Below the pieces are notes generated by a model. The model ran no database searches and had not been told where the DNA came from. It worked only from the letters and a program-made list of their open reading frames with translations. From NCBI RefSeq assembly GCF_050320075.1, contig NZ_CP190018.1: 64,000 bases of DNA; one strand, 5' to 3'. Made by a program: the position numbers and the translations under genes. This DNA comes from Escherichia coli (lineage in GTDB: Bacteria; Pseudomonadota; Gammaproteobacteria; Enterobacterales; Enterobacteriaceae). Below are positions 53,532 to 57,367 of the stretch, in pieces (the stretch's first letter is position 1; each line of letters starts with the position of its first letter).

Positions 53532-53592
53532 TTAATCGGTAATGGTGCCAACTTACTGATTTAGTGTATGATGGTGTTTTTGAGGTGCTCCC

Positions 53593-53868
53593 GTGGCTTC
53601 CATCTCCATCAGTTGTCCCTCCTGCTCAGCTACTGAAGGCGTGGTGCGTAACGGTAAAAGTACTGCCGGACATCAGCGCTATCTCTGCTCTCACTGCCGT
53701 AAAACATGGCAACTGCAGTTCACTTACACCGCTTCTCAACCCGGTACACACCAGAAAATCATTGATATGGCCATGAATGGTGTTGGATGCCGGGCAACCG
53801 CCCGCATTATGGGCGTTGGCCTCAACACGATTTTACGTCACTTAAAAAACTCAGGCCGCAGTCGGTAA
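53593..53868 (+). CDS. insA: IS1 InsA (transposition inhibitor / N-terminal part of the transposase)
   Basis: 91 aa, [43 protein letters not shown]…; differs at a few positions from the InsA sequence I recall (V4I, D15E). Confidence 0.9.
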
Positions 53869-54290
53869 CCTCGCGCATACAGCCGGGCAGTGATGTGATT
53901 GTCTGCGCTGAAATGGACGAACAGTGGGGCTACGTCGGTGCTAAATCACGTCAGCGCTGGCTGTTTTACGCGTATGACAGGATACGGAGGACGGTTGTGG
54001 CGCACGTCTTCGGTGAACGCACTCTGGCCACACTGGAGCGTCTTCTGAGCCTGCTGTCGGCCTTTGAGGTCGTGGTATGGATGACGGATGGCTGGCCGCT
54101 GTATGAATCCCGCCTGAAGGGAAAGCTGCACGTAATCAGCAAGCGTTACACTCAGCGCATTGAGCGACATAACCTGAATCTGAGACAACATCTGGCAAGG
54201 CTGGGACGGAAGTCACTGTCGTTCTCAAAATCGGTGGAGCTGCATGACAAAGTCATCGGGCATTATCTGAACATAAAACACTATCAGTAA
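53787..54290 (+). CDS. insB: IS1 InsB (transposase C-terminal part, expressed as an InsAB' fusion by -1 frameshift)
   Basis: 167-aa ORF in the -1 frame relative to insA; contains the A-run region where IS1 frameshifting is known to occur. Confidence 0.85.
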
Positions 54291-54358
54291 GTTGGAGTCA
54301 TTACCGCTTCAAATGAAGAAAAGGCCCCGCAGGGCCTTTATTTTATACTTATCTTAAA

Positions 54359-55234
54359 TTAACCGTTATTATTACGTCCACCAGAACGACGACCGCCGCT
54401 CACCTGACTGTGACGCTTAACCGCTCGACGAATCTGATTCGCCTTCATACGACGACGGTCTTTTTCTACAGCGACTTTAGAGCTGGTTTCTGGCGGTAGC
54501 TCCACCAGTTCGCGCAGATAGTTAGTCTGGGCGAGGTCCAGCTCCGTCCAGCCACCGCGTGGCAGACCTTTCGGCAGTGGGATATCACCGTAACGAACAC
54601 GGATCAGGCGGCTTACCTGCACACCAACCGCTTCCCAAAGACGACGAACTTCACGGTTACGGCCTTCGGTCAGAGTAACGTTGTACCACTGGTTGATCCC
54701 TTCGCCGCCGCTGAACTTGATGGTTTTAAAGGCTGCCGGACCATCTTCCAACTGCACGCCACGACTCAAATCACGCAGTTTCGCGTCGTCAACCTGACCA
54801 AATACACGCACGGCATATTCACGTTCAACTTCACGGCTTGGATGCATTAAGCGGTTTGCCAGTTCACCGTCGGTGGTAAACAGCAGCAGACCGCAGGTAT
54901 TAACGTCCAGACGACCCACGGCAATCCAGCGCGCACCGCGCAGCTTTGGCAGACGGTCAAACACCGTTGGACGCCCTTCCGGATCGTTACGGGTACACAA
55001 CTCACCTTCCGGTTTGTAATAGGCCAGAACGCGACAAATTTGTTCAGCGGACTCACGTACCGAAATAAGGTGACCATCGATACGGATTTTCAATCCAGGG
55101 GTAACTTCAACGCGATCGCCGAGTTTAGCAATTTTGCCATCAACACTCACACGACCGGCTTCAATAATAGATTCGATTTCACGGCGAGAACCGTGGCCGG
55201 CACGCGCCAGCACTTTCTGTAGCTTTTCGCTCAT
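54359..55234 (-). CDS. rluB: 23S rRNA pseudouridine(2605) synthase RluB
   Basis: The in-frame start [34 protein letters not shown]… gives 291 aa; S4 domain plus RsuA-family catalytic domain; Arg/Gly-rich C-terminus. Confidence 0.9.
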
Positions 55235-55444
55235 AGAGCTTCCTTTTGGTGTCGCCTTCCCAGGCGTCTGATATGCTTTTGTGCAACAGTGAGTCAGAAC
55301 TGACATCTGACTCACTGATAGTAAAGTCTGTTTGAACTCTTCAGGCCTTAAGTAAACGACTCGACGTTTATCGGCCTGGCTTTGAGGCGCAACATACTAC
55401 ACTATCTTTATGGTTAAAGCTTGTTTCGATTAACGTCGATTTGG

Positions 55445-57340
55445 TTACCAACCACCACCGCCTCCGCCACCCGCACCGCCGCCAGCACCACCACCGGAAT
55501 AGCTTCGCCCCAACAAACTGGTATAGGCCCCGCAACTCAGGTGCGTCTGCAATGAGAATAAAACGCCACTACGGGCAATTTCCGGGGCGCTAACAGCCGC
55601 TGTGAGTGATGGGGTGATACGTTCTGCCCATTCTCTACCAAGGTTTGCCGAGACCGCCCAACCTAACAACGCGTAATCCAGTTTCCGTGTTTCCCCTTTC
55701 CGCCGCCGCCCACTGTGTGTTGCCGCCTCTTTACGCGCAAGATAGTTAACGATAGCTTCACCGTGGGCATAACGTTGCTGCCCAGTTTGGGTAAACTTTG
55801 GCAGAAAAATATACCCCATGCCAGTGAGATAACCGGTCAGGACAACAGCGCTAAAATAACCCGCTGGCATATACCAGTAAAAGAATACATCTCCGACATT
55901 GATATAGAGAGAATAGAAGGCCACACCTGAACAAATCAGTGGTAAAAACAAAGTGATGATTACACGATTAACGCAAGGCTTGTCATCATCGCGGGCAAAC
56001 AAAAGCTCAAGGGAACAAAATAAAAAAGGAAGAAGCCAGCAGATCATAATAAACATATCGCCCACCAGACTCATTCCTGCCCAGCCTACGGGACTCAGGT
56101 TACCGTAGAGAATGACCGCCAATATTGCCATTCCGCCCCATTGCAAAAACGCATCAGGTCGGTAAAACGAAGACTTTTTACGCGGCAGATAAAATTTCTG
56201 CATCCGTAAAAATGCCCTGCGTAACACTCTGTTGCGTCTCCCCGTAAGAACGACCTTATCGCCTTTACGAAATAACGCTTCCAGTAATAACTGCTCTGCG
56301 GGCAGTAATACCGCATTATTTCTGGTCGCGCCTTCATTAACACGAATCAGGATTTGCTGGTTCTTGTCATACTGATCTTCCAGATGAATTTTGCCTTTCA
56401 CAATCAGATTTACGATATCGGCACAAAAACCTTTATCGTCGTAAACCAGCTTCGCATCGAGACGTAACATGCCGGGCGTGTAATCTGGCGGAATGACATC
56501 GGTTTCAATCACATCTACCGGCGTAAATTGCGGCCTGCGCTTCCAGAGATATAACCATCCACAAACCATGAGCAGACACGGAAACCAAATTAACAACGAT
56601 GACGTGGAGGGTAAAAGAAGATGGCTGAAAATATTCGTCGTTTGTAGAGCCGGGGCATTGCTAAGTAAAGCGTGAGGCCAGCGATAGAGGACCGTGAAGT
56701 CTTCACGATAAAACGGATCGCGGGATTCAATTCTTCCGTCCTCAAGGATGCGGCCATTTCGATATGTGTCGCCCTCTTCTCCGGTAAAGAGATCAATTTC
56801 GCTAAATGGATTACCCGCAATATTAGAGATCTGGAGAGAAAATCGGGTCTTATAAATTTCAAACGGCCACTTGTTACCGGTCACGTTCCAGATTAACAGA
56901 TCAGAATCTCCCTCACGCAGGAAAGCATTTTTAACCTGATAATGAATTTGATAATGATAGTCACCTTGAGGCAAGAAACGTTGTTTATCGCCCACGACAA
57001 TACTCATTAAACCGATATGCCAGTCAAGATGCCAGGGTTCAGGAACACCATCACGGGTGACGCCAACAATATGATAGTTCAGCAGTGCAGCGTCACCATC
57101 AGGCTGCATCCATAGTCGTGGTAAATCACGATAAAATCCGTGCTTAATCTGCTGATTTCGCGCCTGAAAATGAATGTTCTCTTTGATGTCGAGCACCCCA
57201 TCCAGTTGCAGGGTGGCTTCAACATCAAAGAGCGAGATCCCTTCTTCATAAGAAGGGATCTCCGTGTTTTCTGCATAACTTAGAGATGATACAAACAGCC
57301 CTGCTATCAACAGCAAAATGCAGCGAAACTTCCCTGCCAT
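55445..57340 (-). CDS. yciQ: Inner-membrane protein YciQ (DUF2207)
   Basis: 631 aa; signal/TM N-terminus, several TM helices, C-terminal Gly-rich tail (SYSGGGAGGGAGGGGGGGW). Confidence 0.85.
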   Translation of the reverse strand: MAGKFRCILLLIAGLFVSSLSYAENTEIPSYEEGISLFDVEATLQLDGVLDIKENIHFQARNQQIKHGFYRDLPRLWMQPDGDAALLNYHIVGVTRDGVPEPWHLDWHIGLMSIVVGDKQRFLPQGDYHYQIHYQVKNAFLREGDSDLLIWNVTGNKWPFEIYKTRFSLQISNIAGNPFSEIDLFTGEEGDTYRNGRILEDGRIESRDPFYREDFTVLYRWPHALLSNAPALQTTNIFSHLLLPSTSSLLIWFPCLLMVCGWLYLWKRRPQFTPVDVIETDVIPPDYTPGMLRLDAKLVYDDKGFCADIVNLIVKGKIHLEDQYDKNQQILIRVNEGATRNNAVLLPAEQLLLEALFRKGDKVVLTGRRNRVLRRAFLRMQKFYLPRKKSSFYRPDAFLQWGGMAILAVILYGNLSPVGWAGMSLVGDMFIMICWLLPFLFCSLELLFARDDDKPCVNRVIITLFLPLICSGVAFYSLYINVGDVFFYWYMPAGYFSAVVLTGYLTGMGYIFLPKFTQTGQQRYAHGEAIVNYLARKEAATHSGRRRKGETRKLDYALLGWAVSANLGREWAERITPSLTAAVSAPEIARSGVLFSLQTHLSCGAYTSLLGRSYSGGGAGGGAGGGGGGGW

Positions 57341-57367
57341 AGTCTTCCATCCGTGGAACGCAATTTG

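Follow-up and report, generated by a model that had tools for sequence, protein, structure and literature searches.

A conserved stem-loop in the 5′ leader of rluB in Escherichia coli and other Enterobacterales

Hairpins in front of Escherichia coli coding sequences have been described in several settings. The S10 leader attenuator, which is controlled by ribosomal protein L4, and the pyrBI attenuator control entry into the genes that follow them; the alpha operon is autoregulated by S4 through a mimic of rRNA; the 5′ stem-loop of ompA stabilizes its mRNA; and other leader structures are obstacles to RNase E scanning. Perfect palindromes in intergenic DNA are also the hallmark of the REP/BIME and ERIC elements. 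The hairpin analyzed here is likewise an intergenic perfect palindrome of E. coli but, unlike those elements, it is single-copy (across 5,426 complete E. coli genomes, the median number of places is one), belongs to no Rfam family, and keeps its position 5′ of one gene, rluB. Genes for rRNA-modification enzymes are usually regarded as unregulated housekeeping genes, and the literature searched contained no description of the rluB leader and no paper mentioning rluB together with yciQ, the gene upstream of it.

The hairpin and its place in the rluB transcript

The palindrome lies on the minus strand at 55287..55317 of the window, the whole stretch of 64,000 nucleotides of E. coli DNA that was analyzed. 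The repeat finder returned two perfect arms of 12 bp (55287–55298 and 55306–55317; CAGTGAGTCAGA / TCTGACTCACTG) with 7 nt between them, so that the inverted repeat of the original prediction is real, while its dimensions, given there as 11 bp around 9 nt, gain one A-U pair. In the RNA of the minus strand, the hairpin (HP3) reads CAGUGAGUCAGA-UGUCAGU-UCUGACUCACUG and is followed by UUGCACAAAAGC; half of its 12 pairs are G-C (six), and its folding energy is –20.1 kcal/mol (z = –4.5 relative to sequences shuffled by dinucleotide). In Markov-simulated sequences of 64 kb, perfect repeats with arms of 12 bp or more and 3–12 nt loops arose on average 0.055 times per sequence, and the hairpin pattern, with three mismatches allowed, had a single occurrence in the window and none in 100 shuffles. 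The copy of E. coli K-12 differs from that of the window in the loop only. When the region was scanned with Rfam 15, no family was recovered, the sole match being a chance snoRNA hit (E = 1.6; 17 bits, for a gathering score of 49).

The hairpin is situated in the 210-bp spacer between two genes of the minus strand, yciQ (DUF2207; 55445..57340) and rluB (23S rRNA pseudouridine 2605 synthase; 54359..55234). It begins 128 nt past the yciQ stop codon (55445–55447) and lies 53–83 nt 5′ of the rluB ATG (55234), in agreement with the distances first proposed. In K-12, SMRT-Cappable-seq defined an rluB-only unit that runs from 1326700 to 1327761, and a second start site, 1326297, was placed within yciQ (PMC6131387 supplementary tables). 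By identity with K-12 position 1326700, the rluB transcription start site of the window is 55386 (minus strand). In K-12 this position is a C, located 8 nt past TAGTAT; it precedes the ATG by 152 nt and the hairpin by 69 nt, and the hairpin therefore occupies +70 to +100 of a 152-nt rluB leader. The original prediction had placed the repeat in this leader while allowing for a start site downstream of it; the mapped start is upstream.

The rluB leader promoter is inside the yciQ–rluB spacer. TAGTAT (55394..55399, minus strand) is its likely –10 hexamer, ending 8 nt before the position mapped in K-12, and other genera have conserved the homologous promoter motifs, GTGTAGTATGTGCG and TGTATACTACGCGG. 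We also observed that the equivalent place in other genera carries GGTTACA-N17-TATAAT, and that, within 55387–55399 (minus strand), the –10 hexamer is separated from the start site by the G+C-rich GTTGCGC. This stretch is reminiscent of the discriminators found in rRNA promoters under stringent control.

Of the 37 reads that begin at 1326700 in M9 medium, 18 end at the rluB terminator and seven more reach or pass it (PMC6131387), figures that are compatible with a fraction of short, prematurely ended transcripts, since the method selects long molecules. In the accessible part of the Term-seq tables (PMC7815308), the 3′ end given for rluB is 1327761 and none is listed between K-12 positions 1326642 and 1326851, the yciQ–rluB spacer, a listing from which the 3′ ends of a poorly expressed gene could be missing if they are weak or unstable. 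MazF is reported to cut the leader of rluB 49 nt upstream of the start codon, at an ACA (PMC5001579 Table 1). The best-matching ACA is within UUGCACAAAAGC, directly 3′ of the hairpin and, if the match holds, the spacer 3′ of the stem is transcribed, single-stranded, and accessible. No rluB hybrids were found in the Hfq-CLASH tables, where only CpxQ, MgrR, and GadY were paired with yciQ. Of the CpxQ–yciQ hybrids, 45 map to the start region of yciQ (57300–57345) and six to its Gly-codon-rich 3′ end (55448–55500), which is also where the MgrR and GadY hybrids fall. The 5′ coding region of yciQ contains a palindrome of its own, with perfect arms of 13 bp around a 3-nt loop (57234–57262; GAGATCCCTTCTT-CAT-AAGAAGGGATCTC).

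When the leader was folded from +1, the hairpin stayed an independent domain (z = –3.7). Upstream of it, the fold predicts a nested hairpin (HP1, +9 to +45; 55342..55378, minus strand; CAGGCC...GGCCUG around AAACG...CGUUU), which differs in length from one E. coli strain to another, and a weak one (HP2, +47 to +64; 55323..55340, minus strand; AGAGUU-CAAACA-GACUUU). A GC-rich hairpin at +121 to +134 is predicted near the Shine-Dalgarno sequence. The stretch between the start site and the hairpin is unconserved across genera. On the other side, the hairpin is followed by the spacer UUGCACAAAAGCAUAUCA (55269..55286, minus strand), which is homologous to UUUUUGAAAGUAUACCA in relatives and holds the ACA that best matches the reported MazF cut, by a GNRA-capped hairpin (55250..55268, minus strand), and, 5 nt further, by the rluB Shine-Dalgarno sequence AGGAAG (55239..55244, minus strand). 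In the predicted fold, the Shine-Dalgarno sequence and the AUG, 43–53 nt downstream, are unpaired with the hairpin, which gave no sign of a sequestering element or RNA thermometer.

Two further candidates were considered for this region and discarded. A GUG in the 5′ arm and an AUG at the stem-loop junction (55304–55315, minus strand) are in frame with rluB here, in an ORF of 318 aa; neither an N-terminal extension of RluB nor an upstream ORF was retained, as the frame is not conserved—the loop of K-12 reads AUG-UAA—and for this reason the shared frame is probably meaningless. A search of the rluB leaders found no conserved upstream reading frame or leader peptide, and no conserved alternative pairing of the antiterminator kind; a factor acting in trans is conceivable. 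In several genera, TGTGTGACA repeats upstream of the hairpin raised the idea of a mobile-element end; the cargo varies by locus, and a leader-linked transposase was not found.

Covariation, the U-run, and the two leader forms

The comparison included 80 rluB loci, with one genome per species, or 84 leaders when extra loci are counted; the RluB protein search gave close relatives only, and the leader comparison is accordingly one of Enterobacterales. About 27 leaders share a hairpin homologous to HP3, of the form (AU)CAGUGAGUUA - loop - UAACUC(G/A)UUG, located ~17 nt before the GNRA hairpin and ribosome-binding site. In an alignment of 26 of these leaders, ranging from E. coli to Yersinia, the 12-pair helix was 83% paired, compared with 28%–48% when the partner strand was slid. 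Nine of the 12 stem pairs had changed on both sides, and the observed covariation values were attained in none of 500 shuffles. The ten outer pairs of the helix contained 30 G·U cells versus three A·C cells, which means that the helix can form in the sense RNA of rluB but neither in RNA of the opposite strand nor as a symmetric DNA site. Covariation hence bears out, on the sense strand, the stable RNA stem-loop that had been proposed for the leader.

One Escherichia leader (L004) has two compensatory pairs (CAGUGGGGCAG / CUGCCCCACUG), and the common Escherichia alleles turn a G-C pair of the stem into G·U. The hairpin of a Klebsiella sp. (L087), a locus that also has a yciQ homolog, carries three further double changes and scored 68 bits with a covariance model built from the others. 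Loops vary freely in sequence and are 5–19 nt long among the orthologs. The two arms evolve differently: CAGUGAG in the 5′ arm is nearly constant, and the 3′ arm drifts via wobble pairs. The 5′ arm is somewhat more constant than pairing needs, which hints at sequence-specific recognition. In many genera, the whole hairpin is replaced by an unrelated one.

Directly 3′ of the E. coli stem there is no U-rich tract: the tail is UUGCACAAA, with two U in the eight nucleotides of UUGCACAA, and the terminator scanner made no call. UUUUU does follow the stem directly in Kosakonia, Leclercia, Enterobacter, Klebsiella, and a Pantoea strain (L037, L018, L067, and L087 are examples of orthologs with the U-tract), and the scanner called the Kosakonia copy (L037) terminator-like. 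A tail of the form UUUU(U)G(A/C)A(A)GUAUACCA leads to the GNRA hairpin in homologs of the Leclercia, Kosakonia, Enterobacter, and Klebsiella types and in one strain each of Pantoea and Mangrovibacter. Because the E. coli spacer UUGCACAAAAGCAUAUCA aligns with this U-run tail, with the run broken (UUGCAC), the U-run has been lost in E. coli. A crude count over the 84 leaders, based on contiguous stems, gave 15 with hairpin and U-run, 43 with a hairpin lacking the U-run, and 26 with no simple stable hairpin; a hairpin is therefore common at the site, and the terminator-like tail is confined to a subset. Since pairing persists in Escherichia after loss of the U-run, as in L004 and in the G·U alleles, it is the structure itself, not termination, that is selected there.

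The original prediction held that the repeat did not look like a simple intrinsic terminator, and this agrees both with the missing U-run and with the accessible Term-seq tables, in which the spacer has no listed 3′ end (PMC7815308). Its suggestion of an attenuator suits the U-run-bearing orthologs of other genera; it does not suit the E. coli copy. The element is, very probably, an RNA stem-loop of the sense strand in the rluB 5′ UTR. It would be maintained by selection, and its homologs in the leaders of other genera look like terminators.

Within E. coli, the leader exists in two forms. Of the 5,426 complete genomes, 3,976 (73%) have yciQ and the HP3 leader, while in 1,442 (27%) yciO is followed directly by a 100-bp spacer that shares the GNRA hairpin but has another hairpin (AAUGGCGC...GCGCCAUU, then GAUUCUCC) than HP3. 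The two forms split right past the yciO stop codon and rejoin at GACGCC. The present-or-absent segment comprises yciQ and ~176 nt of spacer, with the HP3 form of the leader (window 55270–57367; the counterpart is 1435–1500 of L002). The layout of yciO, ~100 bp, and rluB is also that of E. albertii, Citrobacter, Enterobacter, and others, and it is ancestral. No yciQ was detected outside E. coli by tblastn in the 80 Enterobacterales loci; a later protein search located it at the same locus in a Klebsiella sp., and its nearest relatives are from a few Klebsiella, at this same locus, with 55%–57% identity. Elsewhere the yciO–rluB gap carries IS3 fragments, Hcp with Tlde1, or an OprB porin. The hairpin accompanies rluB rather than yciQ or any other upstream gene, as it is conserved 5′ of rluB next to different upstream genes and where yciQ is absent. 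Its particular sequence is dispensable, given that another leader hairpin serves in 27% of E. coli genomes and in most other genera.

Some additional features of the locus were recorded. In short leaders of the ancestral type (L002 1460–1537; L005, L045, L049, and L050), a short ORF begins at an AUG within the hairpin's 5′ arm and ends either at a UGA in the GNRA loop or where AUGA overlaps the start codon of rluB; this AUG is missing from Enterobacter leaders. On the 3′ side of rluB, a complete IS1 of 768 bp (53538–54305; InsB ORF 53787–54290) separates it from the convergent btuR. The btuR–rluB gap of K-12 is only 40 bp, and the rluB terminator region differs between K-12 and the window strain.

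The most conserved element of the leader was not part of the original prediction. It is the GNRA hairpin 18 nt downstream of HP3, GACGCCUG[G/U]GAAGGCGACA, found in 84/84 leaders with the N of the GNRA as the sole variable base, save for one two-base variant (L064). Its stem consists of G-C, A·A, C-G, G-C, C-G, C-G, and U-A, closed by the GNRA tetraloop; it occurs once in the window and has no Rfam match. We take it to resemble, loosely, helix 93 of 23S rRNA, the RluB substrate, the comparison being between GA-CGCC-U[GNRA]A-GGCG-A-C and what we assume for helix 93, GAACGUC[GUGA]GAC-A-GUUC. Mimicry of helix 93 by the loop of HP3 itself (CAGUUC) was also considered and rejected, as K-12 has UAAGUUC and other orthologs differ. 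The rluF leader shares no motif with that of rluB.

Possible roles of the hairpin

The reading that we favor, at a probability of about one in two, is that of a conserved stem-loop acting in cis within the leader and derived from a hairpin of the attenuator kind; in E. coli it would no longer terminate and would protect or insulate the module downstream. The promoter in the yciQ–rluB spacer yields a 152-nt leader carrying the E. coli ortholog of the Enterobacterales hairpin, in which the U-run has mutated to UUGCAC and the stem has become longer and perfect. No longer stopping transcription, the hairpin would have been retained as a structural module of the mRNA, for which we infer a stabilizing or insulating role: it may be a stable obstacle that shields the translation-initiation module from 5′-to-3′ attack by RNase E, and may prevent the GNRA–Shine-Dalgarno unit from misfolding with the variable upstream leader. 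Some residual effect on pausing or attenuation could persist. The 26 of 84 leaders in which the crude criterion found no simple stable hairpin run counter to this reading. By itself, the hairpin is a modest, ordinary element, either a cis-acting leader hairpin or a decayed attenuator.

Residual attenuation or pausing is the main rival. A hairpin still working as an attenuator or pause site in E. coli, perhaps with NusA or NusG, and setting the level of rluB would agree with its place between promoter and gene and with the UUUUU-bearing orthologs of Kosakonia, Leclercia, Enterobacter, Klebsiella, and a Pantoea strain, one of them scored as terminator-like. The E. coli copy itself speaks for the opposite, with its U-poor tail, the silence of the scanner, the lack of a 3′ end for the spacer in the accessible Term-seq tables (PMC7815308), and the capped reads, most of which reach the end of rluB. 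Neither a conserved antiterminator pairing nor a leader peptide was found in the leaders, the AUG in the K-12 loop being followed by UAA. We thus regard this role as rather unlikely.

A protein-binding site is more doubtful still. RluB, via its S4 domain and in autoregulation, or a general binder of hairpins such as ProQ could recognize the hairpin, maybe jointly with the GNRA hairpin, and the near constancy of the CAGUGAG arm beside a 3′ arm drifting by wobble would fit such recognition. The near-invariance of the GNRA hairpin in 84 leaders also suggests specific recognition somewhere in the leader, and that hairpin has a presumed likeness to the RluB substrate. The loop of HP3, however, is free in sequence and length (5–19 nt), the CAGUUC motif that it would have in common with helix 93 is gone in K-12, many genera have an unrelated hairpin instead, and the rluF leader holds nothing similar. 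A bolder version, in which the GNRA hairpin mimics helix 93 without its target uridines and RluB represses its own translation or triggers termination at the upstream hairpin—HP3 being the transcriptional arm of this switch, decayed in E. coli—strikes us as improbable.

Three other roles are unlikely. The hairpin could belong to yciQ, as the 3′ end or the 3′-exonuclease block of yciQ transcripts that enter the spacer. There is no recognizable terminator between yciQ and rluB, and in RNA read through from yciQ the 210-nt spacer has a very stable fold (z = –5.25), in which the promoter region is paired beside the hairpin. Against this, the hairpin is conserved 5′ of rluB in species without yciQ and with different upstream genes, and the accessible Term-seq tables list no 3′ end there (PMC7815308), which leaves this role with a slim chance. 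Processing by RNase III, trimming the long leader at a perfect duplex within the 5′ UTR, seems to us very unlikely. The substrates of RNase III in E. coli are usually duplexes of some two helical turns, while this stem, with 12 bp, makes approximately one and is short for the enzyme, and the orthologous stems are weaker and rich in G·U pairs. That shortened leaders are compatible with polysome association is shown, in favor of this role, by the MazF cut reported just 3′ of the hairpin (PMC5001579). Finally, a palindromic operator for a dimeric transcription factor, for which a perfect inverted repeat downstream of a promoter might be taken, is hardly credible, as the arms evolve asymmetrically (30 G·U to three A·C cells), their spacing ranges from 5 to 19 bp among orthologs, and +70 to +100 is far from the polymerase binding site.

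Comparison with described leaders

A selected, structured leader would make rluB a tractable case for studying how ribosome-biogenesis factors are tuned. Its parts are a promoter with a G+C-rich stretch, a hairpin kept by compensatory changes, and a near-invariant GNRA hairpin at the ribosome-binding site, and the natural 73%/27% polymorphism of E. coli leaders offers a ready-made comparison.

The conserved stem-loop that we favor as protecting or insulating the downstream module recalls that of ompA, in that it is stable, conserved, and placed within a long leader upstream of the ribosome-binding site. A stabilizer of the ompA type, however, must be at the extreme 5′ end, while the rluB hairpin begins at +70 from the mapped start. 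With the attenuators of S10 and pyrBI, it shares a location downstream of the promoter and ahead of the coding sequence, here that of a translation-related gene, and, in many Enterobacterales orthologs, a U-run right after the stem; the E. coli copy differs from them by having neither the U-run nor a listed 3′ end, nor a recognized effector, leader peptide, or alternative pairing. Compared with the rRNA-mimic autoregulation of S4 and the alpha operon, feedback on rluB is hypothetical, and the presumed resemblance to helix 93 belongs to the GNRA hairpin and not to HP3; the likeness lies in the S4 RNA-binding domain of RluB and in the invariant GNRA hairpin, with its presumed resemblance to the substrate of the enzyme, that adjoins the rluB Shine-Dalgarno sequence.
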